A DNA stretch of 64,000 bases from Candidatus Bruticola sp. GTDB taxonomy: Bacteria > Vulcanimicrobiota > Xenobia > Xenobiales > Xenobiaceae. Where the stretch lies: assembly GCA_051874695.1 (NCBI GenBank), contig JBJEGC010000015.1, positions 119,800 to 183,799 of the forward strand. The letters run 5' to 3'. Below are positions 1,174 through 32,399 of this stretch, piece by piece. Position 1 is the stretch's first letter, and every line of letters begins with the position of its first letter. The position numbers and the translations under genes were made by a program. The notes under the pieces were generated by a model. It was given only the letters and a program-made list of their open reading frames with translations, was not told the DNA's origin and did not search any database.

Positions 1174-3225
1174 ATGAGGAAAGCCACTGTTACCAGATTC
1201 GCTTGTTCATTGTTAATTCTGGCTATATGCATGCTTCTGCCCTTGCAAGCCGGTGCGAAACCGAGTAAACAGGCTAAAGAACTTTCCGATATTGAGCAAA
1301 CCTTAGCTCCGATAGCTCTGTATCCCGACAGCTTGCTCGGCAATGTTTTAATAGCTTCAACCTATCCAGAACAAATTATTACAGCTCAAGAATTGCTCGA
1401 TAAATATCCGAAAGACAACCTGGATGATTTAACAAAAAGAGCTGAACATCAAGACTTAGATGAAAGTGTCGTCTCCCTCTTAGCCACTCCAGACGTTGTT
1501 CGAACTATGTCGAGCGACATGGATTGGACAAACGATCTCGCCGACATTTTCACTAATAAAAATGATGAAATGTATACGGCTCTGCAGAGTTTGCGCCGCA
1601 TTGCTTACGATAATAAAAAACTCGCCTCGAACGACGATGTACAAGTAACTACCGAAAACAACTATATATACATCAATCCGACCAATCCTAATACGATGAC
1701 CGTACCTACTTACGATGTAAATTATGTGTACGGCATATCATCTCCCAATTACGGATACACTTTTGTAAATTCCGCCATTCAGTGGGGTACGTTTACTCTT
1801 TTGAACGAACTCTTCTATGGCAGCAGCTGGGACTGGCACGGACGCCGCTTCTGGTGGGGTCCTGGCTACAACTACTACCGTTATTGGAATAACAGCTGGT
1901 ATCCTTGGAACTATAATCGCCACTACTACAATCCTCCGCCGCCTCCGCCGCCTCATCGTCCCAGTTATACTCCTCCGCCACCACGCCCTCACCGCCCTGG
2001 CTATAACGGTTATCGCCCCGGTCACGAACGTCCGCATGCAGATAGACCACACCCCGTACACGGTTGGGATAGCGATCGTCCGGGACGCCCAAGCAGACCG
2101 GGAATTGACAGCAGCAGGCCCGTGCGCCCGGGCAGACCTAGTCTCGACAGCGGAAAGCATAGCCGCCCCGACAAACCTAGTCTCGACGGCGGAAAGCACG
2201 GCCGCCCCGGACGCCCCAGCTTCGACAGCGGAAAAGCCACACTTCCCAGTAGAGAAGGCGTAGACGGCGGAAAGTACAACCGACCCGGACGCCCCAGCTT
2301 CGACAGCGGAAAAGCCACACTTCCCAGTAGAGAAGGCGTAGACGGCGGAAAGCACAGCCGCCCCGGACGCCCCAGCTTCGACAGCGGAAAAACTACGCTT
2401 CCCAGTAAGGCAGGTGTAGACAGCGGAAAGTACAACCGACCCGGACGCCCCAGCTTCGACAGCGGAAAAGCCACACTTCCCAGTAGAGAAGGCGTAGACG
2501 GCGGAAAGTACAACCGACCCGGACGCCCCAGCTTCGACAGCGGAAAAGCCACGCTTCCCAGTAAAGCCGGTGTAGACGGCGGAAAGTACAACCGACCCAG
2601 CAAGTCGTCTTCGGACAGTTCGAGCTACAGCAGGCCTAGCAGGCCATCTTCGAGCAGCTCAAGTTACAGCAGGCCTAGCAAGTCGTCTTCAGACAGTTCA
2701 AGCTACAGCAGGCCTAGCAGGCCATCTTCGAGCAGCTCAAGCTACAGCAGGCCCAGCAGGTCATCTTCGGACAGCTCAAGCTACAGTAGACCTAGCAGGT
2801 CATCTTCGGACAGCTCAAGCTACAGTAGACCCAGCAGGACATCTTCGAGCAGTTCAAGCTACAGTAGACCTAGCAGGTCATCTTCGGACAGCTCAAGCTA
2901 CAGCAGGCCTAGCAGGCCATCTTCGAGCAGTTCAAGCTACAGCAGGCCTAGCAGGCCATCTTCGGACAGTTCAAGCTACAGCAGGCCTAGCAGGCCATCT
3001 TCGAGCAGCTCAAGCTACAGCAGGCCCAGCAGCCCATCTTCGAGCAGTTCAAGCTACAGTAGACCCAGCAGGTCGTCTTCGAGCAGTTCAAGCTACAGCA
3101 AGCCCAGCAGGTCGTCTTCGAGCAGTTCAAGCTACAGCAAGCCCAGCAGGCCATCTTCGAGCAGTTCAAGCCACAGCAGGCCTAGCAGAGCTTCTTCTAA
3201 ATCAAAGGGTGAGCACAACGACTAA
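1174..3225 (+). CDS. Secreted protein with a DUF3300-like N-terminal domain and a long Pro/Ser/Gly-rich tandem-repeat tail
   Basis: Signal peptide MRKATVTRFACSLLILAICMLLPLQAGA. Motif LAPIALYPDSLLGNVLIASTYPEQ, which I recall as the DUF3300 signature. After about 250 aa come a PPPPPPPHRP stretch, 26-aa repeats (GRPSFDSGKATLPSREGVDGGKYNRP) and then 14-aa repeats (SYSRPSRPSSSSSS). The stop is TAA. Confidence 0.7.
   Translation: MRKATVTRFACSLLILAICMLLPLQAGAKPSKQAKELSDIEQTLAPIALYPDSLLGNVLIASTYPEQIITAQELLDKYPKDNLDDLTKRAEHQDLDESVVSLLATPDVVRTMSSDMDWTNDLADIFTNKNDEMYTALQSLRRIAYDNKKLASNDDVQVTTENNYIYINPTNPNTMTVPTYDVNYVYGISSPNYGYTFVNSAIQWGTFTLLNELFYGSSWDWHGRRFWWGPGYNYYRYWNNSWYPWNYNRHYYNPPPPPPPHRPSYTPPPPRPHRPGYNGYRPGHERPHADRPHPVHGWDSDRPGRPSRPGIDSSRPVRPGRPSLDSGKHSRPDKPSLDGGKHGRPGRPSFDSGKATLPSREGVDGGKYNRPGRPSFDSGKATLPSREGVDGGKHSRPGRPSFDSGKTTLPSKAGVDSGKYNRPGRPSFDSGKATLPSREGVDGGKYNRPGRPSFDSGKATLPSKAGVDGGKYNRPSKSSSDSSSYSRPSRPSSSSSSYSRPSKSSSDSSSYSRPSRPSSSSSSYSRPSRSSSDSSSYSRPSRSSSDSSSYSRPSRTSSSSSSYSRPSRSSSDSSSYSRPSRPSSSSSSYSRPSRPSSDSSSYSRPSRPSSSSSSYSRPSSPSSSSSSYSRPSRSSSSSSSYSKPSRSSSSSSSYSKPSRPSSSSSSHSRPSRASSKSKGEHND
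2086..2600 (+). repeat. Tandem coding repeat, 78-bp unit (about 5 full copies plus degenerate half-units upstream)
   Basis: Near-identical 78-bp units beginning ggacgccccagcttcgacagcggaaaagccac at about 2208, 2286, 2364, 2442 and 2520. All are in frame within the 1174..3225 CDS. Confidence 0.8.
2596..3190 (+). repeat. Tandem coding repeat, 42-bp unit x about 14
   Basis: Unit agctacagcaggcctagcaggccatcttcgagcagctcaagt with small variations. It encodes SYSRPSR[PS]SS[SD]SSS. In frame within the 1174..3225 CDS. Confidence 0.85.
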
Positions 3226-3383: not shown

Positions 3384-4589
3384 ATGGCTTTTAATAACCA
3401 GTACAGCAAAAAAACACTGCTCAGCTTGATTGCCTGCCTGATAATTTCAGTGTGGCTGCCCTTAACAGCTCAAGCTTCTAGCTATTCAGATCATGAGCTT
3501 GACCAAATTATGGCTCCCGTAGCTCTCTATCCTGACAGCTTATTGGGCAACGTTTTAGCTGCCTCAACTTATCCGGATCAATTAATAGAAGCAGACAGCT
3601 GGGCCTCTCAGCATCATTACAACAGTGCCTCCGACACCTTAAATAGCGTCGCCAATAAAACCTGGGATGACAGCGTTAAATCCCTTCTCTTAACACCTGA
3701 AGTAATTGCTATGATGGTCAACGATTTGACCTGGACAGACAAACTGGCGCAAGCTTTCACTACTCAGAAGAGTGAACTCTGCGATTCTGTTCAGAGATTG
3801 CGTCGTCAAGCAAAAAGCAACGGTGTTTTGGAAACAAACGATCAAGTTAAAGTAGTAGAACAGAATAACGTTATCTCTATTGGCTCGTCCCAAAGCGACA
3901 TTATCGCCGTACCTCAATATTCCACGCTTGTTTGTACGCAAACATTCGATCCGCTCGATACGTTCTTAAAAACGGCCTTAGTATGGGGAACTGTCCGCAC
4001 CTTGGATACCATATTTTTCGGAAGTTATTGGGATTGGCACTCTCACGACATTTACATTGGTCCAGGATACAATCATTTTTACTGGGATGGCGCTCCCAGA
4101 GCGTGGTATCCTCATCCTCCAGTTCCGCCGCCGCCTCACCACGATCCGCACCATCCGGCTCCCGCTCCATATGTTCCTAAAATGCATCCCAGCCACAATC
4201 CCCCGCCTCCTCATTATGTGAGCCAACAAAAAACATACCAAGATCGCCGTCCCGGCCAGTACTCACCTAACAAGCACCACAGTGAACCGGCTCACTCATC
4301 AGCTCCAAATCATCCGGCCACTAAAGGTAACCCCAATTACCACTCCCCTGCTCATATAGACCAAAGCATACACAGTCGTCAAACAACTCCCCAGCATCAA
4401 AATGAGCGTCCCAATTTTGATAAGAGCCATTCTGACCCCACTAGGGCAGAGCTCAAACATGAAGAAGCCAAGCAGCATCTGCAGCAAAATCAGCATGAAG
4501 AAGCTAAGCAGCACCTGCAGCAGAATCGGCGTCAAAGCAGCAGCCGGACAAAAGAACGCCGTACCCGATCTTCACGACTGAGAAAATAA
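3384..4589 (+). CDS. Secreted DUF3300-like paralog with a Pro/His-rich C-terminal tail
   Basis: Signal peptide. MAPVALYPDSLLGNVLAASTYPDQ is homologous to the first gene through roughly the first 250 aa (WDWH..IGPGYN conserved). The tail is Pro/His-rich with a duplicated HEEAKQHLQQN. Confidence 0.7.
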   Translation: MAFNNQYSKKTLLSLIACLIISVWLPLTAQASSYSDHELDQIMAPVALYPDSLLGNVLAASTYPDQLIEADSWASQHHYNSASDTLNSVANKTWDDSVKSLLLTPEVIAMMVNDLTWTDKLAQAFTTQKSELCDSVQRLRRQAKSNGVLETNDQVKVVEQNNVISIGSSQSDIIAVPQYSTLVCTQTFDPLDTFLKTALVWGTVRTLDTIFFGSYWDWHSHDIYIGPGYNHFYWDGAPRAWYPHPPVPPPPHHDPHHPAPAPYVPKMHPSHNPPPPHYVSQQKTYQDRRPGQYSPNKHHSEPAHSSAPNHPATKGNPNYHSPAHIDQSIHSRQTTPQHQNERPNFDKSHSDPTRAELKHEEAKQHLQQNQHEEAKQHLQQNRRQSSSRTKERRTRSSRLRK

Positions 4590-4753: not shown

Positions 4754-6199
4754 ATGAACACTACCGTAATCAGACGTTTTTTAGGTGCAGTTCTGCTGCT
4801 TGGTGCCGTTACTTATGGGGCTGTTTCAGGCACTATGAGCGTTCGGGCTGCCGACGATCAGACTCCTATTTTGAAACGCGAACTCTATTCTATAGTACAA
4901 AATGCCAAAATAGATGATAAAACGAAAGTAGGCGTCTACATTCAGGTACTGGAAAACGGCCGAGTAGTCTTTTCATCTGACGGCAATACACCTCTTGTTC
5001 CAGCTTCCAATCTTAAAGTACTCACTACAGCAGCTTCTTTAAGTGTATTAGGACCGAACTACCGCCTAAAAACTGAACTGCGCGGTCCTTTGCCCAATAG
5101 CAACGGCCAGATTGAGGGGAATCTTTACCTGCGCGGCGGCGGCGATCCCACTACAACTCCTCCCTACGATCAGCCCTGTACCTCTCCGTACTCTAAATTT
5201 ATCGCCAGTCTGAAAGCCGCTAAAGTTAGAGAAATACATGGAGATCTAGTCGCAGATGACTCTATTTTTGATCGCAATTTTCTGCCCGAAGGTTGGCTTG
5301 AGCATTATCGCCTCGACGCCTTTTCCGCTCCGGTAGGCGGTTTATCTCTTAACGGCAACCTAGTAGAGGCGGTAATATCCCCTTTAGGCTGCTCTTTAGA
5401 GCCGTCTTGCTCCACCATGTCTATTCAAACTCAATATGGCGACGGATACGATACAGCGATAGAGCGTCCCAAAGGCAGCAACATAGTTAAAGTTTTGGGC
5501 AGTGCCCCGAGCGGTGAAATACGAAGACAAATTTGCGTAGAGAATCCGCCACTTTTCAGCATAGGCGTGTTTAAAAAACTTTTAAACAAAGAAAACATAA
5601 CTGTTCGGGGTAACGTTCGGCTAATCGATCAAGCAGGAGAAGCAGCTCTAGTAGATCAGCTGCCCCGTTACGGTCTCCATCTCTCTCTGCCGATTTCTAC
5701 TATTATCCAAGAAATCAATCACGAGAGCGACAATCTTTTTGCCGAGCATCTTTACCGCTATATCGGTCAGTTAGTATCAGGTCAGGGTTGCGCGGCCAGC
5801 GGCATGCAGGCTTGTCGTCAATACCTTGAGAGTAATAATATAAACAGCAACGGACTAAAAATGGTCGACGGATGTGGTCTATCTACACAAAACAGAATCT
5901 CGCCCAACCAGTTGGCCAGTGTACTTGATGCTATGGATCGCAGTTATTACCGCAGTTGGTATAAAGAAAGCTTACCTCACAGCGGACGTGGCACTCTGCG
6001 CGGACGCCTAGGCGACCTGGAACTTAGAGCCAAAACGGGTACTTTAGACCACGACTCCGCTTTGACCGGATATATTATCACTGCTGCAGGTCAGGAGCTG
6101 ATATTCTCTGTTATTGTTAACGATGCACCTATATGGATTGCAGTTGATACGCAGAATAAAGTAGTACAAGCTCTGGGGAACTGGAACAAACGCATTTAA
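4754..6199 (+). CDS. dacB: D-alanyl-D-alanine carboxypeptidase/endopeptidase, PBP4 family (peptidase S13)
   Basis: Signal peptide. SxxK motif in PASNLKVLTTAASL, SDN in HESDNLFAE, KTG in AKTGTL. The order and spacing are typical of DacB/PBP4. Confidence 0.8.
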   Translation: MNTTVIRRFLGAVLLLGAVTYGAVSGTMSVRAADDQTPILKRELYSIVQNAKIDDKTKVGVYIQVLENGRVVFSSDGNTPLVPASNLKVLTTAASLSVLGPNYRLKTELRGPLPNSNGQIEGNLYLRGGGDPTTTPPYDQPCTSPYSKFIASLKAAKVREIHGDLVADDSIFDRNFLPEGWLEHYRLDAFSAPVGGLSLNGNLVEAVISPLGCSLEPSCSTMSIQTQYGDGYDTAIERPKGSNIVKVLGSAPSGEIRRQICVENPPLFSIGVFKKLLNKENITVRGNVRLIDQAGEAALVDQLPRYGLHLSLPISTIIQEINHESDNLFAEHLYRYIGQLVSGQGCAASGMQACRQYLESNNINSNGLKMVDGCGLSTQNRISPNQLASVLDAMDRSYYRSWYKESLPHSGRGTLRGRLGDLELRAKTGTLDHDSALTGYIITAAGQELIFSVIVNDAPIWIAVDTQNKVVQALGNWNKRI

Positions 6200-6333
6200 C
6201 CCATCCCTCTGTAGGCGGTGAGATGAATTGCTCTTCGGAGCCAACGGTGCTGTCCTCAATGAAGCAGGAAGCTCCCGCCTCTGTAGGCGGGAGTACGTTC
6301 ACACTGACAGATAACTATCTGTACACACCGCAT

Positions 6334-6376
6334 AAAAAAAGCAGGAATCTCTAGAGGTTCCTGCTTTTTTTGTTTT
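6334..6376. terminator. Bidirectional intrinsic terminator between the convergent dacB and xdhC-like genes
   Basis: aaaaaaa GCAGGAA tctctagagg TTCCTGC ttttttt. A-run and T-run flank a 7-bp stem. Confidence 0.7.
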
Positions 6377-6392: not shown

Positions 6393-7580
6393 TTAAGACT
6401 GACCTGACAGTTTGGCAGCGATATTCTTATTTAAACTTATTTCAGAACCTTTGCCCTTGTTAAAAGTACTGATTATTTCTGCCATTATAGATACGGCTAT
6501 CTCTTCCGGAGTTTCGCCCCCTAAATCGAGACCTATAGGAGCATGAACGCGTGACAACCATTCTGGCGAAACACCGTCTGTCAACAAATGTTCCATAATG
6601 ATGCGAGTACGCCGTTTGCTGCCAATCATTCCCAAATAGCCTAAGTTTTTGCCTATCAGGCAGCGCAAACATTCTTCGTCGTGCTTATGTCCGCGAGTCA
6701 CCAAAACTACCGCACAATCGGCATCTAGGCGAGGTTCCAAATCGGCAAAAAATTCGCTGAAAGGCTTAGAAATAACTTCGATTCCTTCGGCAAAAAGGCT
6801 TGGATCGGCGTAAAGAGGACGATCGTCGTTAACCGTGACTGCGAAACCACACATCTTGCCGATGGCAGCTACAGGGCGGGATACATGACCGGCGCCAGCA
6901 ATATATAGACGTTTAGAAGGAGCAATTAACTCGGCAAAAACTTCCAGATGTCCGTCGCGGTAGGGTAGCAAACGGCACAAAGAGACACCACTATCCAGCA
7001 CTTCTTCAGCCAGACTGCTCAAAAGTTCAGAAAAGCAGCTGTCGTCGGCGCCTTCCTGCTCGGCCTGCAAACCGTTGCCGCGCCTGTACAACCAGCGCCT
7101 GCTCAGCAGCGGCTCTTCTTTTAAAGTTATAGGATCGGCAGAACCGGCACTTTTCTTCTGGGAACCCAGGCAGACAATACTGACAACCGCTTCATTTTTA
7201 TCGAGCAGACAAGCAAGAAGATTTTCGGCAATTTTTACCTTGGCAGGTTGATCTTTGAAAGTTTCTACCAACACCACAAGACGTCCGCCGCAAATCATGG
7301 CCTCGCCACCGTCTTTTTGCAGATCGCCAGTATAAGCCAAATTGACATTCAGCAAAGCGCTGCCGCCTTTGCGAGCCGCATTTTTGGCTTCCTGCCAAGC
7401 CTCGGCTTCAGGGCATCCGCCGCCGATAGTACCAACAACCTTACCTTCGCCATCGACCAGCATTTTAGCCCCGGCACCGCGCGGCGTCGAACCGTAAGTG
7501 CGCACCACAGTTACCAGCGAAAAAGGATCCTGACTGTGCAAATAACTGCGCCAGCGTTGATAAAGTATACTGCTCATCAA
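6393..7580 (-). CDS. XdhC/CoxI-family molybdoenzyme maturation factor
   Basis: 395 aa. N-terminal XdhC_CoxI-like motif GAKMLVDGEGKVVGTIGGGCPEAEA. C-terminal Rossmann-like XdhC_C region (LYIAGAGHVSRPVA). Confidence 0.7.
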   Translation of the reverse strand: MMSSILYQRWRSYLHSQDPFSLVTVVRTYGSTPRGAGAKMLVDGEGKVVGTIGGGCPEAEAWQEAKNAARKGGSALLNVNLAYTGDLQKDGGEAMICGGRLVVLVETFKDQPAKVKIAENLLACLLDKNEAVVSIVCLGSQKKSAGSADPITLKEEPLLSRRWLYRRGNGLQAEQEGADDSCFSELLSSLAEEVLDSGVSLCRLLPYRDGHLEVFAELIAPSKRLYIAGAGHVSRPVAAIGKMCGFAVTVNDDRPLYADPSLFAEGIEVISKPFSEFFADLEPRLDADCAVVLVTRGHKHDEECLRCLIGKNLGYLGMIGSKRRTRIIMEHLLTDGVSPEWLSRVHAPIGLDLGGETPEEIAVSIMAEIISTFNKGKGSEISLNKNIAAKLSGQS

Positions 7581-7624: not shown

Positions 7625-8197
7625 CTATTCGTCCGCTTTATTGTTCGACCGATTATTTGTATGTTCCAAAACAGTTGAATCTGCAGCGCTTTCACTGGGA
7701 ACAGCTTGGGGCGCCTCAGCGGCTTCGACCGTCTCGGGCTTAACGGCACTGACTTTAACCTCGGCGGGCCAAATGCGGTACAGGTCAGCGGCCAAGGCGC
7801 GACTGTCGCCGTTATAGCAAACTTCCAAAAATTCCCCTATAACGGCAGTGTCGGCTTTAATTTTTTGATGTTCAGGAAAAGCGGCTGCACATCGGCAAAA
7901 CTCTTTAGCAACCTTAGGAGCCAGTTTAGCGGACCGAGCAGCCAAGGAGCCTACACCATCTATATAAGACCAACTCTTATCTACCCCCCAAGCAGCCAGA
8001 ACAGAAGCAGACAGACTAGGATCGATAGAATGCAGAAATATCCAGGTTTTTTGCTCGTTGCTTAAACTTTCCAGAGGTGGTACATCGGAATTCTTTTCAC
8101 AAAAATAGATAACTGCCATAACCGCAACTAGCGGCAGCAAAGCCAGCAAAACTCCGCAGGGGAGCTGCTGGCCGAAAATAGTACAAACAATAAGCAT
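7625..8197 (-). CDS. Hypothetical membrane-anchored protein
   Basis: 190 aa with an N-terminal TM helix. Its ATG overlaps the upstream stop (TAATG coupling). I recognise no motif. Confidence 0.45.
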   Translation of the reverse strand: MLIVCTIFGQQLPCGVLLALLPLVAVMAVIYFCEKNSDVPPLESLSNEQKTWIFLHSIDPSLSASVLAAWGVDKSWSYIDGVGSLAARSAKLAPKVAKEFCRCAAAFPEHQKIKADTAVIGEFLEVCYNGDSRALAADLYRIWPAEVKVSAVKPETVEAAEAPQAVPSESAADSTVLEHTNNRSNNKADE

Positions 8198-9288
8198 TAC
8201 TTGTTACCGGGACGATCTTTAAGCGTCATTCTGGGATGCTCAAGATGCTTGGGATTGTCCGGATTAACGCCTCTAGACATAGCAATATAGAACATCATGA
8301 ACTGAGCAACCGGCAGCACAAGCAGCACGCGGGCGATCTCACTGACTCCAGACTTGAGCTCTAAAAGCTCATCGCAACGGGTCATTAAGTCGTTAGCTCC
8401 GTCTTCTGCCACAATCAAACGATGAGATCTGGTAATAGCCAAATCGGCCATAACTCTCTCTTCTACAGCTCTGAACGAGTTGGAAATCATACCTACTACC
8501 AGAGTTTGATTGGTGGAATATCCGTAGTATCCGTGACGATATTCGATAAAATAATTGCTTGTACAAGGAAGACCAGCAATTCTTGAAACTAAATAGGCCG
8601 CCTCCTGAGCCACTCCATAGAAAGGACCAGATCCTAAGAAAGCCACATTGCTGAGTTTATCCATCATAACAACCTGCTGAGCTCTGATCTGCCAGTCTTT
8701 CAAATGGGCCCCTAACACATCGGGAAGAGCGTTAAGCTCGTTAAGAAGCACCTGCTTGCCGCAGAGCCACCCCACCAAGTTCATACAAGCCAGGAGCATA
8801 CCGTTAGCGTGCAGCACAGGCACTTTGAGGTTACTCTTAAGAGACGGGAAAACTATGGAAGTAATGGCTAAACCGGCTTCTAAGGAGGCACTCTCACCGG
8901 CTTCAAAAGAAATGACTTGAGCCTTAGGATCGAGCTGTTTGAGCTTTTCAACGCCCCAACCCAATTCCTGAGAAATTTCCGGAGTAGACAGAGCAACAAC
9001 TAAAGTGCGGATACGGGCATCGTAAGGAGGACGTCGTCCGAACATAATCTCGCTGGGAGTTACGGCTAAGGAGTTCAAACCAGATACCAAATGGGTTATT
9101 TTGGCAGCCGAGACAGCAATATTATAAAAGTCGGAAGTAGCTGTATAAACTACCTGTCCAAAGTTCTGTCTTCGGATCCATTCAATCATGGAAGCGCTGT
9201 TAGAGGCCATAGTATCTAAAACGCCGCGCCAAACTTTGGGCTGTTCCTGCATTTCGTTAAAGAAAATGGAACCTTTTCTATAAAGCAT
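8197..9288 (-). CDS. Tandem SIS-domain sugar-phosphate isomerase/deaminase-like protein (AgaS/GlmS C-terminal-like)
   Basis: 363 aa. Two SIS-like halves, each with a G-S-G/phosphosugar-binding loop (VAFLGSGPFYGVAQEAAY in the second). Confidence 0.55.
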   Translation of the reverse strand: MLYRKGSIFFNEMQEQPKVWRGVLDTMASNSASMIEWIRRQNFGQVVYTATSDFYNIAVSAAKITHLVSGLNSLAVTPSEIMFGRRPPYDARIRTLVVALSTPEISQELGWGVEKLKQLDPKAQVISFEAGESASLEAGLAITSIVFPSLKSNLKVPVLHANGMLLACMNLVGWLCGKQVLLNELNALPDVLGAHLKDWQIRAQQVVMMDKLSNVAFLGSGPFYGVAQEAAYLVSRIAGLPCTSNYFIEYRHGYYGYSTNQTLVVGMISNSFRAVEERVMADLAITRSHRLIVAEDGANDLMTRCDELLELKSGVSEIARVLLVLPVAQFMMFYIAMSRGVNPDNPKHLEHPRMTLKDRPGNK

Positions 9289-9381: not shown

Positions 9382-11106
9382 TTACGGCAGGTTTTCCAAA
9401 GTGTCGACCTGCGTACCGGTGAAGTACCGAGATAAGATTTGAAGGTAGCTTTGACCGCGCTTGGCCATGCCGATGGCTCCCCATTGGCACATGCCGCCCC
9501 CATGTCCCCAGCCTTGCCCTGATACAACGATATATCCGGGCTCATGTTCACACTCGACAACCGGAGCTTCTGAATTTGAATTTAGAGTACTGTATTCCGT
9601 ATCCAACAGATTTAACACCTGCCCCAAAGCCGGAAGTTCCTCTTGAAATTCCTGCCTCTTAGGCTCTGTTTGCATATAATTGCCACTGACAATTACAAAC
9701 TTAGCTGAAGGCAAAGAACGGTATCGGCCGGAAGCATCTTTAAAACGCATAGCCGAACGCACAGCCCCGTATTCTAATGTTTCCGTGGATCCATTCTGGA
9801 AATGAATACGCAGTTTAGAGACACGACCCGAAGGTCCCTGTTCTGCTATTTCCAAGCCGGACACAGGTCCCAGTTTTTTCCCGAAATATTGGCTCAGCTC
9901 CTGCCCTAACTCTGTTTCACTCCAACGAGCCTGCCAAGAATAATAACCCGATGCCGAGCAGTCGGCTTCCCCATCTTCGTTAACACACTCAACACTGGCT
10001 AAGTAAGGTGCAGATTCGGAGCCGTAAATATAAAGCGGACTCTCCGTTTGTCCGCCACACGCAGAATGATAAAGAGTCTGATCGGCTAAGCGCCCGTTGT
10101 AAGTGAGTACTTGACCGGCTGTATCCGCTGTGGCCCGATCCGACTGGATAGTTTCGACCGCAGCCCCTCCGTAAACTTGAGAATTGGTGCTACAATCCAC
10201 ATCCCAGACTTTGTTGTTAGAACGACGGGCCCAGGCGTAAGTGCGCGCAGCCACAGCCTGAGCTTTCATAGCTTCAGGAGCACTGCAAAGTAACTCTTTA
10301 GGAATAACACCGCGCAGATAATCTTCCAAAGAAAGATAATTAACAACATAAAGGCTGCCTGAAAGGCGCTCAGCCTTCAAGCACCCTCGATAAGCTTCGC
10401 TACCAATCTGCAGCACAAATCCAGAAGCACAACTTACAATTTCTGCAGAAGCTTCATCTTGTCCAATTTCAGCTGTACTCTGACCGGTTGCCCGTCCATT
10501 AATAACCAAATCTGCACCGCCCTGGTAAGCAGAAGGACAAAATGACGGTGAGGGCTCCGGTTTAAGACTAACTCTAACGGGACCGCGCCCCTGATAAATT
10601 AAAACTCGAATAGGGCAAGACAATCCTTCCAGCTGCGCAATACGCTCATTGTGAGGCGACACACCAGAAGTGTCCAGTTGCTCAACCGCACTTTCTTGAT
10701 TAGTTGCTCCCCCTTCGGAAGTATCTGGGCCATTCTTTTCGGTTAAAGAAGACGATTCAGCAGCTGCTTCCGGGGTTATTATAGTATACGGCTTGGGCGC
10801 AGGCCCCCAATCGACCGCTTTTCTCTCCGCTCCAGACTTACGATTACCGAAACGGCTCGCTTTATGGCGCCTGCTTCGACTGCGGCACCCTGCTTCTTCG
10901 GCCGAGGACTCTACAGCTGATACATTTTTACTGTTGTCAGAATGGGTAGTAGGTGTGGGGGCGGGAAGCGGAGAGTCAGGAACTTCGGCATAAACAGCAG
11001 CTGACAGTAGCATTAGAAGTGCAATCGAGAGCCCCAAAATTTTTACTGCCGCTGCTGCAATCGACCTAACTTTCAAACTATTCGAAGTAATTAACTTGAT
11101 CTTCAT
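9382..11106 (-). CDS. SpoIID/LytB-domain protein with an N-terminal anchor and a low-complexity linker
   Basis: Motifs AMKAQAVAARTYAWARR, HSACGGQTES and C-terminal GHGGGMCQWGAIGMAKRGQSYLQILSRYFTGT match the SpoIID/LytB amidase-enhancer domain. Confidence 0.75.
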   Translation of the reverse strand: MKIKLITSNSLKVRSIAAAAVKILGLSIALLMLLSAAVYAEVPDSPLPAPTPTTHSDNSKNVSAVESSAEEAGCRSRSRRHKASRFGNRKSGAERKAVDWGPAPKPYTIITPEAAAESSSLTEKNGPDTSEGGATNQESAVEQLDTSGVSPHNERIAQLEGLSCPIRVLIYQGRGPVRVSLKPEPSPSFCPSAYQGGADLVINGRATGQSTAEIGQDEASAEIVSCASGFVLQIGSEAYRGCLKAERLSGSLYVVNYLSLEDYLRGVIPKELLCSAPEAMKAQAVAARTYAWARRSNNKVWDVDCSTNSQVYGGAAVETIQSDRATADTAGQVLTYNGRLADQTLYHSACGGQTESPLYIYGSESAPYLASVECVNEDGEADCSASGYYSWQARWSETELGQELSQYFGKKLGPVSGLEIAEQGPSGRVSKLRIHFQNGSTETLEYGAVRSAMRFKDASGRYRSLPSAKFVIVSGNYMQTEPKRQEFQEELPALGQVLNLLDTEYSTLNSNSEAPVVECEHEPGYIVVSGQGWGHGGGMCQWGAIGMAKRGQSYLQILSRYFTGTQVDTLENLP

Positions 11107-13255
11107 CTATATAGCCACTACTGCTGCCCTGACTGAAATCGGGAATAACAGTCTTGGGAGGCTGAGAAAGATCTTCAGGAGCATTAGGAATTATTTCCCC
11201 GCTTTCAGTACGATTGACAAATTCTGGCGGCTCGGAACTTTCTGCAGGCGAAGTTTCACCATCGTCGGCTGCGGGCACCTCAGAATTGGCTTCTTCTTCA
11301 GACCGAACTTCATCTTGACCGTAGTCGTCCGCTTCCCAACCGGTGTCGGCATTTTCATCGAAAGAAGAGTTGTAAGAGGCGTTATCTTCTGATAATTCGG
11401 AGCCGACTTCACTGACAGGCGCGGTGGTCTTGACAGCTTTAGGAGTAAGTTGCTCTAAAGAACGCAGCTTTTTAGCAGGATTAGCTGCAGAATTCTTTGC
11501 TTCAGTCCCTTTGGCAGCTTTGCCGCCTACTCCCGGCAGAGGATCGAAAACACAACGAAAACCTGAGTTGGCCAGACGTCCTTGTTCAGGTAGCACCCCA
11601 TGCTCCTGAGTGAGCATACATTCCACAGCACTGTCGCTGCGCGAACCTCCTTTAATAACTTTTGTGAGAGGTGTATACTCAGCGGCGGCTCCGTAAGGTA
11701 TGAACCAAGTGTCGACCCATTCCCATACATTACCGGCCATATCTTCAACTCCGTACGGAGAAGCACCGCGCGGGAAAGTCCCCACTGCAGAAGTATTAGT
11801 CAAACCGCTCTCTACACAATTAAACCTGGTGTAATCTGGCTCCCTACCTCCCCAGGGATACAAACGCAGATCTCCTCCCCGAGCAGCTTTTTCCCACTCA
11901 TTGGCCGTGGGCAATCGCTTGCCAGCCCAGTGAGCGTAAGCTTCACAATCATAAAAAGATACTCTGATGACCGGATGATCGAGACGATCATCGGAAGCAG
12001 CTTCCTCCCAGTTTCCTTGAGCCTTATAGCCTGTGGCTTCCACAAATTTTTTGAATTGACGGTTGGTAACCTCGTACCTGTCCATATAAAAAGCGGGCAA
12101 TTCCACTACCAAAGGACGAGCTGCCTTGCCGGCAGCCGGTACAGGACCGCTGTAATAAGGGCCGGCAGGTATCAAAATCATGGGAGCTCCATCCTTGGGC
12201 GACACCCAAGATTGTGGCAAATTATCTACCGTGGGTGCGGGACGACCCGTTTCTTTAGTTGCTAAAATCGGCTTTTCATCGGTAGTAACTATGCCGCTAT
12301 AGAACAGCAAACCGCCCACGCAGAGGCTGCCTATCAGAGGAAGAGCCACCATAGCCACAATCGACCAGTCAACGCTCTTCAGCATCCTCTTAAAAGCTCC
12401 AGCGCCCTGAGCCAAAGAAGCCGCTAAGGGATCAGCGTCATCAGCATATTCACTTTCAATAGCAATAACATCGGCAGTTTTTGGAGCAGGCAGTTCGGCG
12501 GACTCACCAACCACAGCCGGATATTCGGCAGAGGAAGTCCAACGTTGCTTTTTTTTCTTCTTAAGCTGCTTTTCTTCTTGGCGCAAACGATTGGCCCAAT
12601 CGCGAAATTCAGGCAGAATATCTGCAGGCAAAGGACGCTCTCGAGGATCGGCTTCGAACAGGCGGCTAAGCTGTTTGTTGAGCTTGTGGGATAAACCAGG
12701 AATAGGCTCTAATTCCACATCGGGGATGAGCAGAGTCTGAGCATCGGGAGGCTGATGACCACTCAACAGATGATAAAGAGTAGCCCCCAGCTGGTAGTCA
12801 AGCACACCGGGGCCTATTTCCCCTCTATTCACTTGCTCCGGAGCACAGTAAGGAGAATGGCCTCGCTCCTCAAAGCCAGGATCGCAAAGTACAATCTTCT
12901 GCCCCTGACGAATTAGATGTTCCGGACGGAGATCACAAATTATAAATTCCGAAGGCACCGAAGAAAGAAGTTCCAGAATAGCGCATACGGTTTCGGCGTC
13001 AATGACAGGTTCAAGAGGCGTACCTTCAGCCCAAGGACGAATCACAAAAAGACGCCCTTCTTCTTCGCAAACTGTATAAGGAACAACCAGCCCTTTTATT
13101 TCGCAGGAACTCAATTCGTGAAGACGCCTCTGAGCCTCTTCCAAGTTAATATGACGCAGTTCACGAATTGCCACCAAACCGAACTGATCCGTTTTCCCGT
13201 ACCAGGTGCGCGGCCCCAAGCTTTTCAGTTTGGGTAAAAGTGACAAAACTTCCAC
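11078..13255 (-). CDS. Ser/Thr protein-kinase-like domain (predicted pseudokinase) fused via a TM segment to an FGE/SUMF1 (formylglycine-generating-enzyme-like) domain, with an acidic C-terminal tail
   Basis: Kinase-like subdomains: hinge VIRPWAEGTPL, YCAPEQ (APE), DYQLGATLYHLLSG. Catalytic motifs are substituted: VAIK is VAIR, HRD is ICDLRPEH, DFG is DPG. FGE domain: RLPTANEWEKAARGG, YPWG, GNVWEWVDTW, GGSRSDS, GFRCV. Overlaps the SpoIID gene start by 29 bp. Confidence 0.75.
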   Translation of the reverse strand: MEVLSLLPKLKSLGPRTWYGKTDQFGLVAIRELRHINLEEAQRRLHELSSCEIKGLVVPYTVCEEEGRLFVIRPWAEGTPLEPVIDAETVCAILELLSSVPSEFIICDLRPEHLIRQGQKIVLCDPGFEERGHSPYCAPEQVNRGEIGPGVLDYQLGATLYHLLSGHQPPDAQTLLIPDVELEPIPGLSHKLNKQLSRLFEADPRERPLPADILPEFRDWANRLRQEEKQLKKKKKQRWTSSAEYPAVVGESAELPAPKTADVIAIESEYADDADPLAASLAQGAGAFKRMLKSVDWSIVAMVALPLIGSLCVGGLLFYSGIVTTDEKPILATKETGRPAPTVDNLPQSWVSPKDGAPMILIPAGPYYSGPVPAAGKAARPLVVELPAFYMDRYEVTNRQFKKFVEATGYKAQGNWEEAASDDRLDHPVIRVSFYDCEAYAHWAGKRLPTANEWEKAARGGDLRLYPWGGREPDYTRFNCVESGLTNTSAVGTFPRGASPYGVEDMAGNVWEWVDTWFIPYGAAAEYTPLTKVIKGGSRSDSAVECMLTQEHGVLPEQGRLANSGFRCVFDPLPGVGGKAAKGTEAKNSAANPAKKLRSLEQLTPKAVKTTAPVSEVGSELSEDNASYNSSFDENADTGWEADDYGQDEVRSEEEANSEVPAADDGETSPAESSEPPEFVNRTESGEIIPNAPEDLSQPPKTVIPDFSQGSSSGYIDEDQVNYFE

Positions 13256-13665
13256 TATTCGTTCTCCCCTTCATCTGATTGAGACTGGCAGTCTGCAGCA
13301 GACCTTCCGCTTTGATCAGCCTTGATCGAGTCATCGGCCAAAATTTTGGCTAACACGTCTGCCAAATCGCGGTCTTCGACCGATTCCAAATTTTCTATAT
13401 CTGGTAAGCCCACAAAGCGCTCTTCGGCTTTAAGACAATCAGCACTCCACGGTTCCCAGTACGGACAAGCCTCTTTTTTACTATCTTCCACGGTGCCGGT
13501 AACGGGAGCCATTAAATACTCTTCATGGCGAAATACATCCAACTTGGAGCAGTGAAACAGAGAATACTCTGTATCAAGAATTTCATCTATTTCTAAACCG
13601 CGATCCACAGTATCCAAATAACGACATAAGGCACAAACTTTCCATTTATCTTGAGTCATAAACAC
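13255..13665 (-). CDS. Small acidic hypothetical protein, translationally coupled to the kinase-FGE gene
   Basis: 136 aa, pI clearly acidic, several Cys (CALCRY...C...C). Its stop overlaps the start of the kinase-like gene. Confidence 0.45.
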   Translation of the reverse strand: MFMTQDKWKVCALCRYLDTVDRGLEIDEILDTEYSLFHCSKLDVFRHEEYLMAPVTGTVEDSKKEACPYWEPWSADCLKAEERFVGLPDIENLESVEDRDLADVLAKILADDSIKADQSGRSAADCQSQSDEGENE

Positions 13666-13696
13666 CTCTGCCTTAATCTAAAGAATACTTTATATA

Positions 13697-13741
13697 AAAA
13701 AAACAGCTCCCTAATCTTGATAAAACAAAAGACGGGAGCCT
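13697..13741 (-). terminator. Intrinsic terminator after the lipoprotein gene
   Basis: On the minus strand: GGCTCCC, 22-nt loop, GGGAGC, then tttttttt. Confidence 0.5.
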
Positions 13742-17439: not shown

Positions 17440-17514
17440 TGGTGGGTTGTACAGGACTCGAACCTGTGGCCACCTGATTAAAAGTCAGATGCTCTACCAC
17501 TGAGCTAACAACCC
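17440..17514 (-). tRNA. tRNA-Lys (anticodon UUU)
   Basis: Cloverleaf folds by hand. Acceptor gggttgt/acaaccc, anticodon loop cuUUUaa, T-arm ggttcgagtcc. CCA is encoded. Confidence 0.85.
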
Positions 17515-17548
17515 ATACTCACCATCAACCTTATACAGCTGTCAGAGC

Positions 17549-17626
17549 TGGGGTGGATAGTGGGATTCGAACCCACGACCTCCGGTTCCACAGACCGGCG
17601 CTCTAACCGACTGAGCTATATCCACC
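17549..17626 (-). tRNA. tRNA-His (anticodon GUG)
   Basis: Extra 5' G(-1) paired with C73. Anticodon loop cuGUGga. T-arm gggttcgaatccc. CCA is encoded. Confidence 0.85.
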
Positions 17627-17637
17627 ATATTTTCTCT

Positions 17638-17713
<76 letters not shown>

Positions 17714-17743
17714 ATATACCTTATGCTCTTTACCAGCGACACT

Positions 17744-17821
17744 TGGTCGGAGCGGCCGGATTTGAACCGGCGACCCCTTGCTCCCAAAGCAAGTGCGCTA
17801 TCCAGGCTGCGCTACGCTCCG
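17744..17821 (-). tRNA. tRNA-Pro (anticodon UGG)
   Basis: Acceptor cggagcg/cgctccg. Anticodon stem cttgc/gcaag with loop uuUGGga. T-arm ggttcaaatcc. CCA is encoded. Confidence 0.85.
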
Positions 17822-23372: not shown

Positions 23373-26183
23373 TTAATTATTTCCGTTCTCTCCAGTCTCC
23401 ATAACTACTAAGCGCACGGCATCTAAACGAGGGCTGGAATCGGCAATAGCAGAGTACACTGTTTCGTTTAGTTCGTCCTGAGCCTCTATGTCGCACTGAG
23501 AGACCGAAGGGTTAATCTTGCTCAGTTCTTGCAGACGGAGTTTTTCGCCTTCCAAGGTAAACTTAGCTTTTTCCATTGCTTTATCGCGCATAGGTTTAAC
23601 CATATTCTGGACGGCTTGGACAACTTTCTCGGTGATAAGTTCAACCCTCTCTCCACATTTTTCCCAGAGCTTAACCACGCCGTTTGGCTTAATACGCTTC
23701 ATACCTTTATGAGCAGGTATTTCACCCTTATAAATGTTGCCGTTTAAAGTTACATTAATCAAAATGGGCACAGGAGATAGATAACGTCCTAATTCCAAAT
23801 TGTCTTGGCCGACAGCCTCAAAAATAAACAGAAATTGAATAATTACTCCAGCTTGAGGAGCCGCTTTCCAGTAAACGGCTGAGGCACTGCCTTCAGTTCC
23901 GTCTACAGCAAAAGATAAAATTTCTTTCACCAAAGGATGAGCCCCGTTCAGATACTCAATCTCTTCGCGAGCCAGCGCCAAATTACGATCGAAAGTAGCC
24001 AACATGCCACCTTCACGCAAACGAGAAAGCGACTCAATTTGCATATTCTTACTGGGAGTAAGATGATACATACCGGCCGTACTTAGCTCTTCCACATTGA
24101 TGCCAAAACGTTCTAAGAGCTTTATAACTACATTTTCAATGTCGAACTGTTTTGTCTCCGCTTCAATTAAAGAAGCCAACTGGCTGCCGCGCTCCTCATT
24201 GAACGAATTTAAATCAACTAAATAATCTACGTTTTCCTCAGCTTTCCGCCTGAAATCTTTAGCCAATTCCAAAGATTTACTTAAAACAGCCCTAAAATCG
24301 CCCGCTTCAAGCAGAACTTTATCTAACCTAACGGCAGTAGCAATCTCTTCCCCACCCTCTACAGGCCCTTCAAAGGAACCCAAAATTTTATGCCAGGCAA
24401 AAAGACGCTCTTCCGGCGTTCCCTTAAAATACATTATGTATACATCGACAGGGTGAGTCTGGCCAATACGATCTAAACGGCCAATACGCTGTTCTACAGT
24501 GTCTGGACTCAGAGGGATATCCCAGAAAATTAGAGTATGCGCAGCTTGAAAATTACGCCCTTCACTACCGATTTCGCTACAAAGCAAAATATCTGCTCCT
24601 TCAGGATCGGTAAACCAGACAGCCTGCTTATCGCGTTCAAATACGGTTAAGCCTTCATGAAAAACAGCCGAATAAATGCCGAAATTGTCGCGCAGCCTCT
24701 CGTGCAAAGCTGACACCAACTGCATGCGCTTGGCAATCAGCACAACTTTTTCACCGGGATGTGATTTTATATACGAGGCAATCCAAATGACGCGCTGATC
24801 TTGGCGCATCTGAGCAGCAGTCAACTCCTTTAGGCCGACAAAAACATTTTCTGCGGCATTGCGGGAAAGGGGCACGGGATGAATAACACGCCCGGAAAAT
24901 AGATCGGACAGACGGCTGCGCCTGTTGCGGAAAAGTACCCGACCCGGGCCGTGACGATCAATAAGAGCACTAAGTAAAGCTCGGCTGTGAGAGTCGGCAC
25001 CCTCATTATCCAAATTATTTCTTAAACCGTCGGCCAAATGATGTACTTGAGAATCGTTAGGAAAGGCCTCTTCAATTGCCTGCAGCGACTCCAAAGTCTG
25101 ACAGCGTCGCTCAGAAAGTTCATTTTCTTGCAAAGCGGCACAAAGTTTTTTCGCTAAATCGGAACCGCGCTTCCAAGCGGCCCGCTCCTGACAATAATTG
25201 GAGAAGTCGGTAAAGCGTTTAGGATCGACTAAACGGAGCAAACCGAACTCAGTTTCCAAACCGCTTCTGGAAGGAGTAGCAGTAAGCAGAAGAACACTGG
25301 CTGACTTATCGGCCAATTTGCGGACTGCTTCATAAGCGCTCTGGCCTTCGTGCAAGTGATGCGCTTCATCGATAATAAGCAAATCCCAATCGTATTTTAA
25401 AGCTTCGTCGATTAGTCCATCTTTCAAGGCCGTCCAAGGGGTAATTGCTCGGCGGGCGGCCATGTAAGGATCTTCTTCCTCCAGCGCCTCACTGTCCACT
25501 AAGCTGAAAACTTCGTTGAACCGGCGGGCCATTTCCGCTAACCACTGATTCGTTAAGCTGTCGGGCAGCACAACTAAAACTCTGGAAGCGCGGCCGCATT
25601 CGCGCAGCACGCTGAAAATGCGTCCGGCCTCAATAGTTTTGCCCAATCCTACTTCATCGGAGAGCAAAACGCGCGGATTCAGCATAGAACAAACTCGTTC
25701 AGTGACATAGAGCTGATGAGGCAAAAGGCTGGCTCTGGAAGCACCGACAAAGTAGGATCCGGAACTCATCATTTTGGAACGCAATTTATGAGCAGCTAAA
25801 CGCAGATGAAGGTCTTCCGGATAACCTACATTACCGTAATACATGCGTCCTAAAGAACTGGAAAGAGGCACTTTATCTTCTAAGTCGGCCTCCGACATGA
25901 ATTGCTCACCATGCCAGTATATTACTAAACCATCTTGCTGAGTAAGCCGCTCAATACGAAAATGGCGTCCATCGCGAGCTACAGCCATTTGACCGGGGCG
26001 CAAAATAATACGACGCAAAGGAGCAGTTTTAATTCTATACAAACATTCTTCCGATTTTGCCGGGAAATAAACTTTGAGCAAACGCTCATCAATAACTTCT
26101 TCGACACACCCCAATCCCATCTGCGGATTGGACTCATTGATAATCCTTTGACCCTTCACAAATTTTTCTAATAGATCCGACAT
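23373..26183 (-). CDS. rapA: RNA polymerase-associated SNF2-family ATPase RapA (HepA)
   Basis: 936 aa. N-terminal region resembles RapA (NPQMGLGCVEEV like E. coli ESELGLGTVV). LLPHQLYVTERV..PRVLLSDEVGLGKTIEAG (motif I), DEAHHL (motif II), helicase C motifs. Confidence 0.8.
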   Translation of the reverse strand: MSDLLEKFVKGQRIINESNPQMGLGCVEEVIDERLLKVYFPAKSEECLYRIKTAPLRRIILRPGQMAVARDGRHFRIERLTQQDGLVIYWHGEQFMSEADLEDKVPLSSSLGRMYYGNVGYPEDLHLRLAAHKLRSKMMSSGSYFVGASRASLLPHQLYVTERVCSMLNPRVLLSDEVGLGKTIEAGRIFSVLRECGRASRVLVVLPDSLTNQWLAEMARRFNEVFSLVDSEALEEEDPYMAARRAITPWTALKDGLIDEALKYDWDLLIIDEAHHLHEGQSAYEAVRKLADKSASVLLLTATPSRSGLETEFGLLRLVDPKRFTDFSNYCQERAAWKRGSDLAKKLCAALQENELSERRCQTLESLQAIEEAFPNDSQVHHLADGLRNNLDNEGADSHSRALLSALIDRHGPGRVLFRNRRSRLSDLFSGRVIHPVPLSRNAAENVFVGLKELTAAQMRQDQRVIWIASYIKSHPGEKVVLIAKRMQLVSALHERLRDNFGIYSAVFHEGLTVFERDKQAVWFTDPEGADILLCSEIGSEGRNFQAAHTLIFWDIPLSPDTVEQRIGRLDRIGQTHPVDVYIMYFKGTPEERLFAWHKILGSFEGPVEGGEEIATAVRLDKVLLEAGDFRAVLSKSLELAKDFRRKAEENVDYLVDLNSFNEERGSQLASLIEAETKQFDIENVVIKLLERFGINVEELSTAGMYHLTPSKNMQIESLSRLREGGMLATFDRNLALAREEIEYLNGAHPLVKEILSFAVDGTEGSASAVYWKAAPQAGVIIQFLFIFEAVGQDNLELGRYLSPVPILINVTLNGNIYKGEIPAHKGMKRIKPNGVVKLWEKCGERVELITEKVVQAVQNMVKPMRDKAMEKAKFTLEGEKLRLQELSKINPSVSQCDIEAQDELNETVYSAIADSSPRLDAVRLVVMETGENGNN

Positions 26184-26392
26184 AGTAATCCATCCAATAA
26201 AGCACTATTGTTATGTGTTATTCCAGCAAAAAAAATAAGCATAGCGACCCCTCCCGCATCCCCCCAGCCAAATCAAGCTAAGAAAACAAACAGCGCAGTC
26301 TATACCACTTTTTTAGGTGCTTTTCCTTTAGATCAAACTCACAAAAGCAGTGTTCGCCGATGTATCAAGCTGTTGCCTCTCAAATGTTTCAT

Positions 26393-26440
26393 AAAGAAAA
26401 CAGACACGTCCTCATACCCAAGTATAAGAACATGTCTGCT
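26393..26440 (-). terminator. Intrinsic terminator after the OPT transporter gene
   Basis: On the minus strand: cagacatgt...acgtgtctg stem followed by ttttcttt. Confidence 0.45.
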
Positions 26441-26454
26441 TTCTATCCAATTTT

Positions 26455-28623: not shown

Positions 28624-28673
28624 AACGCTGCAAACCTATCTATGTAAATTAAAGAAAACTTATATTAAAGTGA

Positions 28674-29480: not shown

Positions 29481-29505
29481 AATTTACGACATATATGAGG
29501 CGATT

Positions 29506-30312: not shown

Positions 30313-30373
30313 AAATACTACAAAACAGGCTAAGGCACCGCTGCGACCCGATAATTTTTCCTCGTCAGATCTT

Positions 30374-32390: not shown

Positions 32391-32399
32391 AGGCGGAGG

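Follow-up and report, generated by a model that had tools for sequence, protein, structure and literature searches.

A predicted receptor with a degenerate kinase domain and a small four-cysteine protein form a conserved gene pair in class Xenobia

Bacterial receptor kinases that combine a kinase domain, a transmembrane (TM) helix, and a domain of the FGE-sulfatase type (FGE, formylglycine-generating enzyme) are widespread, and to our knowledge none of them has a described ligand or output. Cataloguing of bacterial pseudokinases has only recently begun. An atlas of bacterial serine/threonine kinases (STK atlas, bioRxiv 10.1101/2025.01.12.632604) named the kinase-TM-FGE-sulfatase architecture Proteo1, reported kinase followed by TM as the normal order in bacterial STKs, and included the pseudokinase domain of Mycobacterium tuberculosis MviN/MurJ in a family called ActPs3. 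Neither this domain order nor the existence of bacterial pseudokinase families is therefore new. Here we analyze a 725-amino acid (aa) protein, hereafter the receptor, that has the same domain order but a degenerate kinase-like domain. It is encoded in a 64-kb stretch of DNA (the window) from a metagenome-assembled genome (MAG) of Candidatus Bruticola, phylum Vulcanimicrobiota/Eremiobacterota, class Xenobia, and a 100% identical protein from a Candidatus Bruticola MAG is on record at NCBI. Four features are new: a Xenobia-restricted family with a specific and conserved kinase degeneration (R31, xYD, R110, H113, DPG, no glycine-rich loop, short activation loop), an ectodomain with Asp in place of Cys336 of human FGE and an invariant C546, an obligate partner with four invariant cysteines (the Cys4 protein), and a clade-specific tail motif.

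We favor, at a probability of roughly 55%, a non-catalytic receptor model in which a ligand-sensing ectodomain acts through a pseudokinase relay on a Cys4 effector. The receptor probably descends from bacterial receptor kinases with a Hanks kinase, a TM helix, and an FGE-sulfatase domain, since it is homologous along its length to canonical STK-TM-FGE proteins (27%–31% identity over 61%–75% of the query). Its FGE-fold ectodomain would be a sensor for an extracytoplasmic ligand rather than an enzyme, and its pseudokinase domain would be a conformational or binding module that relays ligand occupancy by conformational or oligomeric change. This relay may alter contact with the co-translated Cys4 protein, which would serve as a bound or released cytoplasmic effector. 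Within the gut clade, the signal may concern turnover of the cell wall and peptidoglycan or of amino sugars. The observations beneath the model are the kinase fold, the residue changes, the elements of the topology, the loss of FGE cysteines, and the co-occurrence statistics.

The kinase-like domain is modeled with the bilobal fold of Hanks kinases, and its family profile places it in that superfamily. The Pfam Pkinase model (PF00069) matched the C-lobe only, at 14.0 bits (E 0.034) against a gathering threshold of 31.7, and just one of about 29 family members has PF00069 on record. As a single sequence the domain gave a marginal match to the PDB (E 0.03), and significance came only from a profile of 20 orthologous N-terminal domains, which matched 717 PDB kinase sequences (best E 4.5e-10). 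An AlphaFold2 model built on the family alignment had a mean predicted local distance difference test score (pLDDT) of 93.8, and a Foldseek search with it returned protein kinases only (1931 matches at E ≤ 1e-3, with a TM-score over the query, TMq, of about 0.7). These results bear out the kinase fold proposed by the first-pass annotation of the window. Because most members have no PF00069 on record, kinome surveys keyed to this model, including the STK atlas, have probably missed the family. A search of the domain profile against an index of 5.8 billion proteins found one unrelated canonical kinase, but its candidate list was swamped, making it uninformative on other architectures.

The kinase-like domain has lost most features that handle ATP. 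We set the motif register by alignment with M. tuberculosis PknB and seven canonical kinase-TM-FGE fusions, and we counted residues over 29 family members, of which 27–29 were scored by position. The motifs present in the receptor, LVAIREL (residues 27–33), IICDLRPEH (105–113), CDPGF (124–128), APEQ (138–141), and DYQLGATLYHLLSG, align to VAVK, HRDVKPAN, DFG, and SPEQ of PknB and the canonical fusions. In place of GxGxxG, the receptor has LGPRTWYG, with G14 alone conserved; PknB and the canonical fusions have five more residues in this loop. The beta3 Lys of VAIK is replaced by R31 (family counts R 23, K 2, H 3). For the alpha-C Glu, the acidic residue that comes closest is E47, a position occupied by E or D in 19/28 sequences, and the MAFFT register puts the PknB Glu opposite L48. 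The Lys and Asn of HRDLKxxN are replaced by R110 (27/28) and H113 (28/28), and the activation loop lacks about 17 residues relative to PknB. The catalytic Asp residues are kept. D108 of the HRD motif is invariant (28/28), preceded across the family by I, V, or L instead of His and by C, Y, L, or F instead of Arg, and the DFG Asp, D125, is D in 26 sequences and E in two, within a DPG motif in 25/28. P139 and E140 of the APE motif (28/28 each) and the subdomain XI Arg, R207 (29/29), are likewise retained. The first-pass annotation listed substitutions at all three catalytic signatures (VAIR, ICD, and DPG). The three are indeed altered, yet both Asp residues remain, and of the catalytic triad only the beta3 Lys is lost; that description made too little of the changes on the ATP-binding side (glycine-rich loop, Lys, Asn), made no mention of the catalytic-loop Lys to Arg and Asn to His changes or of the short activation loop, and overstated the loss at the catalytic Asp.

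Lys to Arg at the beta3 position is a classical kinase-dead substitution, and absence of phosphotransfer by this domain is likely on the basis of its residues. Since the VAIK Lys is missing, the domain is a pseudokinase under the usual three-residue definition, as quoted in the STK atlas. Reading it as a dead scaffold goes beyond that definition: the pseudokinase label given earlier holds as a statement about sequence, but the conserved Asp pair and the basic beta3 residue leave room for nucleotide binding or atypical catalysis. Nor is the domain decaying. It holds 35%–50% identity between sequences so far apart that their flanking linkers share only about 10%, and its remaining pocket residues are invariant, which we interpret as strong purifying selection.

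The same conservation could instead mark an atypical active enzyme, one that binds nucleotide through R31, D108, R110, H113, and D125, possibly using another metal at His113, and modifies the Cys4 protein or another substrate upon ligand binding. D108, D125, R110, H113, the APE motif, and the subdomain XI Arg are near-invariant across sequences that are only about 40% identical, and the beta3 position is always basic (R, K, or H), with Lys in P0011 and P0013. Several sequence-defined pseudokinases described in the literature also bind ATP or catalyze reactions. However, the glycine-rich loop and the Mg-binding Asn are gone, little is left of the activation loop, the position nearest to an alpha-C Glu is acidic in only 19/28 sequences, and the domain falls under the Pfam Pkinase gathering threshold, while Lys to Arg normally abolishes phosphotransfer. 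We regard such an enzyme as possible, if on the unlikely side.

Comparison with described families places the receptor close to known proteins in architecture and apart from them in residues. Receptor kinases of the Proteo1 architecture and the canonical fusions found here (P0071, P0079, P0102, P0117, and P0120) share its domain order, but they keep GxGxxG, VAxK, HRDLKPxN, DFG, and a full activation loop and pass the Pfam Pkinase threshold that the Xenobia family fails. The Xenobia family differs from them in R31, xYD, R110, H113, and DPG, and adds an obligate upstream Cys4 gene; one of its clades also has an acidic tail that ends in a conserved motif. MviN resembles the receptor as a membrane-anchored pseudokinase with an extracytoplasmic domain and a possible cell-wall context, and MviN and other ActPs3 members share its attenuated activation loop. 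A natural VAIK Lys to Arg change defines the ActPs2 pseudokinases (bioRxiv 10.1101/2025.01.12.632604), as in the receptor. The ActPs1–3 families, in contrast, lose both the HRD and the DFG Asp in 97%–100% of members, which the receptor family keeps, and they differ from it in phylum and ectodomain. A related genome encodes a second degenerate kinase-like membrane protein, of 674 aa, at a distance of 3.4 kb from its receptor gene (L001:1619-3643, minus strand). It has Pfam Pkinase on record, YGDVDAES and LGHFS instead of HRD, DFG, and GxGxxG, a TM segment, and a long C-terminal region, and pseudokinase-like receptors may be common in this lineage.

The receptor gene was accompanied by the Cys4 gene in every species in which we found it. 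For this analysis we took one genome per GTDB species, identified 18 receptor-carrying species with family-specific peptide patterns, and searched flanking open reading frames (ORFs) by BLASTP. These are Bruticola, "UBP9", an Eremiobacterota MAG, MAGs from the rumen and from the human gut, and a few records whose taxon labels are probably wrong. Three GTDB and NCBI records with the Xenobia-specific pair (L015, L022, and L026) bear the titles 'Candidatus Riflebacteria' or 'Burkholderiales' and are probably mislabelled or mis-binned MAGs. The Cys4 gene directly precedes the receptor gene in all of them (18/18), and in most the two genes overlap or are less than 30 nt apart. Independent metagenome contigs show the same pattern. 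The seven most distant species share this pair alone. The conserved unit is thus a pair of genes, Cys4 and receptor, and not the three-gene unit with SpoIID/LytB for which co-occurrence had been proposed as a check: the upstream gene is always present, but SpoIID/LytB directly follows the receptor in only 9/18 species (L011–L016, L018, L019, and L020) and does not occur there in any of the more distant half of the family. Lack of co-conservation, which the first-pass annotation had named as a refutation, therefore applies to SpoIID/LytB as a universal partner and not to the Cys4 gene.

The Cys4 protein is small and acidic (pI 4.3), with six cysteines, four of them invariant. We confirmed the acidic, cysteine-containing protein of the first-pass annotation, which counted 136 aa from a GTG; translation probably starts at the ATG at 13659, giving 134 aa as in the NCBI annotation. 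Its conserved core of about 65 aa follows the pattern CxxC-x24-C-x27-CP, and C11, C14, C39, C67, L51, and W70 are invariant across 40 homologues. There was no match in Pfam, NCBIfam, or PADLOC. The AlphaFold2 model shows a small beta-rich core (pLDDT 85–89), and Foldseek against the PDB found nothing below E 0.1 (best, the NrdR zinc ribbon at E 0.14), so that no fold was assigned. The most economical reading is that the protein is probably a Zn-binding or redox-sensitive module, and its gene position suggests that it is probably a cytoplasmic partner of the receptor.

The family extends beyond the receptor: its members among 1.84 billion representative proteins fall into 88 clusters at 90% identity and 56 at 50%. 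Long contigs carry three further loci (L008–L010), more distant and without taxonomic assignment, in which a rhomboid gene follows the Cys4 gene, with an overlap in two. Two of the three rhomboids (L008 and L009) have intact HxxxN, GASG, and AHxGG motifs. These loci share synteny with some receptor loci, with PPDK upstream and a ComM/Mg-chelatase-like gene nearby, downstream. A representative library also contained longer proteins with an N-terminal Cys4 domain, P0236 (597 aa) and P0214 (291 aa); in P0236 the domain is fused to a 480-aa region in which we saw, by eye, an HELGH motif (HExxH metallopeptidase-like), and Pfam scans of both proteins gave no matches. Because it is paired with rhomboids and fused to the HELGH region elsewhere, the Cys4 module is not dedicated to the kinase-like receptor and has the look of a cytoplasmic adaptor that can be carried from one membrane protein to another. 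It defines an uncharacterised family that switches partners between the receptor and rhomboid proteases.

Several of these points weigh against the non-catalytic receptor model. Binding of the Cys4 protein to the kinase-like domain is a prediction from gene pairing, and the occurrence of the Cys4 protein beside rhomboid proteases where the kinase-like protein is absent means that it is not receptor-specific. The invariant D108, R110, H113, D125, and G127, together with the basic position 31, resemble a maintained active or ligand site, and two family members keep the beta3 Lys. The analysis found neither a ligand nor an output component (a transcription factor, for instance). A further and bolder proposal, which we consider unlikely although worth stating, is that the Cys4 protein and the degenerate kinase form an undescribed non-phosphorylating transmembrane signalling pair, in which the Asp/Arg/His pocket binds the Cys4 module or a small ligand and the Cys4 protein acts as a portable regulator of membrane proteins. 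Since the ectodomain is the most conserved part, the ATP-handling loops are lost, the pocket is constrained, and Cys4 is always co-encoded, the Xenobia family may be a natural experiment in, and a testable candidate for, receptor signalling that dispenses with phosphotransfer. Practical impact is limited, as the family occurs in Eremiobacterota of class Xenobia that live uncultured in gut and rumen, and its function is predicted from sequence and structure.

Genes downstream of the receptor suggest a cell-wall context in one part of the family. The SpoIID/LytB protein matched TIGR02669 (197.5 bits, above the 83.3-bit cut-off; E 3.8e-58) and Pfam SpoIID (E 8e-22), and it aligns with Bacillus anthracis SpoIID (4RWR). 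Its ATG lies 29 nt inside the 3′ end of the receptor gene, in agreement with the overlap noted earlier. We rejected a sporulation function, given that the cultured relative of the phylum forms no spores. The SIS protein matched PH0510 (E 2.3e-14), Pyrococcus furiosus 2CB0 (1.6e-13), and Thermotoga maritima glucosamine-6-phosphate (GlcN6P) deaminase (1.4e-7), and is nearest to archaeal and Thermotoga GlmD-type deaminases of this substrate; its NCBIfam GlmD match (E 3e-18) is nonetheless far under the cut-off. The SIS gene and a small membrane protein are found downstream in 10/18 species, or 11 when the truncated L017 is counted through the near-identical L001, and XdhC follows the SIS block in nine loci, with L021 ending ahead of that position. 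The 190-aa protein encoded after the SIS gene had no family match above threshold in Pfam or NCBIfam and is co-conserved with the SIS gene at 28%–64% identity. In the gut clade, where the position of the PBP4 gene is also kept, SpoIID, the GlmD-like SIS protein, and PBP4 form a coherent cell-wall and amino-sugar neighbourhood, and it is a neighbourhood only.

The receptor could, on this evidence, be a scaffold or regulator of peptidoglycan remodelling that controls or positions the lytic transglycosylase encoded by the overlapping SpoIID/LytB gene, with the ectodomain or tail sensing peptidoglycan. The overlap itself, the persistence of the position in half of the species (including L019 and L020 at only about 50% identity), the GlmD-like GlcN6P deaminase homologue in the block, the facing PBP4 gene, and the precedent of M. 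tuberculosis MviN, a pseudokinase domain tied to cell-wall synthesis, are consistent with this. However, SpoIID is missing from the receptor-adjacent position in L001/L017, L021, and all seven distant species, and because the Cys4-receptor pair persists there, the conserved core evidently works without it. Pfam and NCBIfam scans detected no PASTA, LysM, or SPOR peptidoglycan-binding domain, and the adjacency could be inherited synteny. We consider a primary scaffold role of this kind unlikely. The link to peptidoglycan remodelling drawn by the first-pass annotation survives as a clade-specific neighbourhood (SpoIID, GlmD-like SIS, and the convergent PBP4) and, because SpoIID follows the receptor in only half of the species, not as a defining property of the module; outside the gut clade a functional link to the cell wall is not plausible, within it it is.

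Beyond the kinase-like domain, the receptor is predicted to cross the membrane once. The Kyte-Doolittle profile (19-residue window) peaked at 2.37 over residues 299–317, the sole TM-grade segment outside the kinase core. The predicted topology has the N terminus inside, one TM helix, and the FGE-like domain and C terminus outside, which agrees with the arrangement of TM helix and outer FGE domain proposed earlier. The phylum has a single cultured member, a Gram-negative, non-sporulating diderm; because of this and of the normal kinase-then-TM order, a periplasmic location for the FGE-fold domain is plausible. This domain matched PF03781 (FGE-sulfatase) with 169.2 bits, far above the gathering threshold of 23.3, and is the best-conserved part of the receptor (60%–97% identity).

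The residues of the ectodomain point to a binding rather than an enzymatic role. FGE catalysis needs both active-site cysteines (human Cys336 and Cys341) for Cu(I) binding. In a HMMER alignment with human FGE (E ~1e-27), D541 falls at Cys336 and C546 at Cys341, each invariant in 27/27 sequences; C568 is also present in the receptor, and the equivalents of the structural-disulfide cysteines Cys218 and Cys235 are Ala in 29/29. Since an invariant Asp replaces one of the two copper ligands, we conclude from the alignment that the FGE-like domain is not a true FGE. The receptor ectodomain thus has the FGE-sulfatase fold in common with SUMF1/FGE but differs from true FGE, which has both cysteines and two structural disulfides, in its Asp and Ala substitutions and its membrane tether. 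The Tsi3 family of type VI secretion system immunity proteins likewise has an incomplete catalytic Cys pair, which predicts a binding role, not an enzymatic one; PvdO and PorK/GldK are further non-catalytic proteins of this fold. FGE domains of the canonical kinase fusions also lack the pair, which fits the view that FGE-fold domains attached to kinases generally serve as sensors or binding modules.

The ectodomain could instead be a genuine FGE, or another oxidase of the SUMF1/EgtB/PvdO type as the NCBI name has it, that matures an exported substrate, with the kinase-like domain as a regulatory add-on. The strong Pfam match, the high conservation of the domain, and the invariant Cys at the Cys341 position agree with this, but the invariant Asp at Cys336 and the missing pair in the canonical fusions do not. 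NCBIfam models for EgtB, SenA, OvoA, PvdO, and GldK/PorK all scored far under their cut-offs (best, EgtB at 86 bits against 360), and the receptor has no DinB domain, which is expected at the N terminus of EgtB and OvoA; an EgtB-like identity was rejected on these grounds. A motif search and phmmer with a sulfatase-containing query found no sulfatase ORF, and no sulfatase substrate with a C/S-x-P-x-R motif, in the 64-kb window, the part of the genome that was covered. The earlier statements that the window holds no sulfatase gene and that the receptor does not serve sulfatase maturation are in line with these results, and a genuine FGE is close to refuted. A sensor of a conflict or anti-phage system is barely credible: the top relatives of the FGE domain include fusions to Peptidase_C14 (caspase-like) and TIR, and PADLOC gave weak kinase matches to mad6 and PD-T4-6 (E 3e-6 to 1e-2), but these cover the generic kinase C-lobe only (E at least 2.8e-6), the other six proteins had no PADLOC match, no effector domain is present, and stable chromosomal synteny across the class (EF-P, lipoprotein, RapA/OPT/M48 block) indicates vertical housekeeping inheritance.

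The acidic tail that follows the FGE-fold domain is variable along most of its length and constrained at its end. It measures 153 aa, shorter than the roughly 190 aa first reported, and has a net charge of −22. Tails of orthologues are only 8%–52% identical, while a terminal 20-residue motif, VIPDFSxGSSSGY[IV]DEDQVNY[YFH], holds 52%–89% identity within the clade. Tails of a second clade end in MSSQYTDxDDxELTGDF, and a third clade (P0014, P0016, P0019, and P0025–P0027) has no tail. The terminal motif was absent from every other ORF of the window and of 30 loci. Because it is also conserved in L001 and L002, where no SpoIID gene overlaps, the constraint on it is one on protein sequence. Extended peptides are ligands of FGE-fold domains, which makes it an attractive idea, and a corollary of the bolder proposal above, that the C-terminal peptide SSGYxDEDxVNYY is a putative tethered pseudo-ligand for the peptide-binding groove of the ectodomain.

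The receptor gene belongs to a block of six co-directional, closely packed genes on the minus strand (13665–6393), with the Cys4 gene first and XdhC last (Table 1). ORF calling recovered the Cys4, receptor, and SpoIID/LytB genes where they had been placed originally. The translational coupling suggested for the first two was also supported, as the Cys4 stop codon shares 1 nt with the receptor GTG start (TAGTG), with a GGGGAG Shine-Dalgarno sequence upstream. A hairpin directly after the gene for a 301-aa lipoprotein, about 35 nt ahead of the Cys4 ATG, resembles a terminator and leaves nearly no space for a separate promoter. The consensus terminator scan missed this hairpin, the folding z-score of the region was only −1.0, and promoter-like matches in a consensus scan were no commoner than in shuffled sequence, so that the boundaries of the operon rest on gene spacing only.

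Table 1. Positions of features at the receptor locus (window coordinates unless a locus is named)
Feature	Position	Strand	Basis
Small acidic Cys4 protein gene, 136 aa from GTG	13255-13665	-	ORF
Receptor gene, 725 aa (kinase-like domain, TM helix, FGE-sulfatase domain, acidic tail)	11078-13255	-	ORF
Kinase-like (Hanks-fold) cytoplasmic domain, predicted, residues 1-222	12590-13255	-	Family profile, AlphaFold2, Foldseek
Single TM helix, predicted, residues ~298-322	12290-12364	-	Kyte-Doolittle
FGE-sulfatase-fold domain, predicted extracytoplasmic, residues 358-569	11549-12184	-	Pfam PF03781, E 1.7e-49
Acidic low-complexity tail, residues 573-725	11081-11539	-	Composition
Terminal tail motif, residues 706-725	11081-11140	-	Orthologue conservation
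SpoIID/LytB-domain protein, 574 aa, N-terminal signal/anchor sequence	9382-11106	-	TIGR02669, Pfam SpoIID
Double-SIS protein, 363 aa, GlmD-like	8197-9288	-	PDB matches
190-aa protein, hydrophobic N-terminal segment	7625-8197	-	ORF; 1-nt overlap with SIS gene
XdhC/CoxI-family protein, 395 aa, last co-directional gene	6393-7580	-	Pfam XdhC_C, E 1.9e-40; XdhC_CoxI, E 5.8e-22
Peptidase_S13, PBP4-type D-Ala-D-Ala carboxypeptidase/endopeptidase, convergent neighbour	4754-6199	+	Pfam PF02113, E 9.8e-74
Bidirectional terminator-like hairpin, block end	6332-6373		Terminator scan
Hairpin GGCUCCC...GGGAGC then U8, possible 5′ boundary of the unit (tentative)	13695-13740	-	RNA fold, centroid structure
Predicted lipoprotein, 301 aa	13755-14660	-	Cys-containing signal-like N terminus
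Cys4-rhomboid pair, without a kinase-like protein	L008:5001-6037		
Cys4-rhomboid pair, without a kinase-like protein	L009:5001-5968		
Cys4-rhomboid pair, without a kinase-like protein	L010:5001-5862		

The 301-aa lipoprotein has no family match. In the gut clade its gene stands directly upstream of the Cys4 gene, between EF-P and the unit, at 45%–71% identity, and the protein may belong functionally to the locus. Farther out, 10–19 kb from the receptor gene, the window carries a block of Peripla_BP_2, FecCD, ABC ATPase, Peptidase_M48, OPT transporter, and RapA genes (23373–32549, minus strand). The same Peripla_BP_2-to-RapA block directly adjoins the receptor gene in a distant relative (L007:9372-16166), which indicates class-wide regional synteny with rearrangement. 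The plus strand of the window contains tandem DUF3300 paralogues of 683 and 401 aa (1174–3225 and 3384–4589) and tandem membrane proteins of the PAP2_3 phosphatase superfamily of 462 and 451 aa (39244–40632 and 40682–42037). Four tRNA genes (Lys-UUU, His-GUG, Arg-UCU, and Pro-UGG) lie within 382 nt on the minus strand, at 17440–17821.

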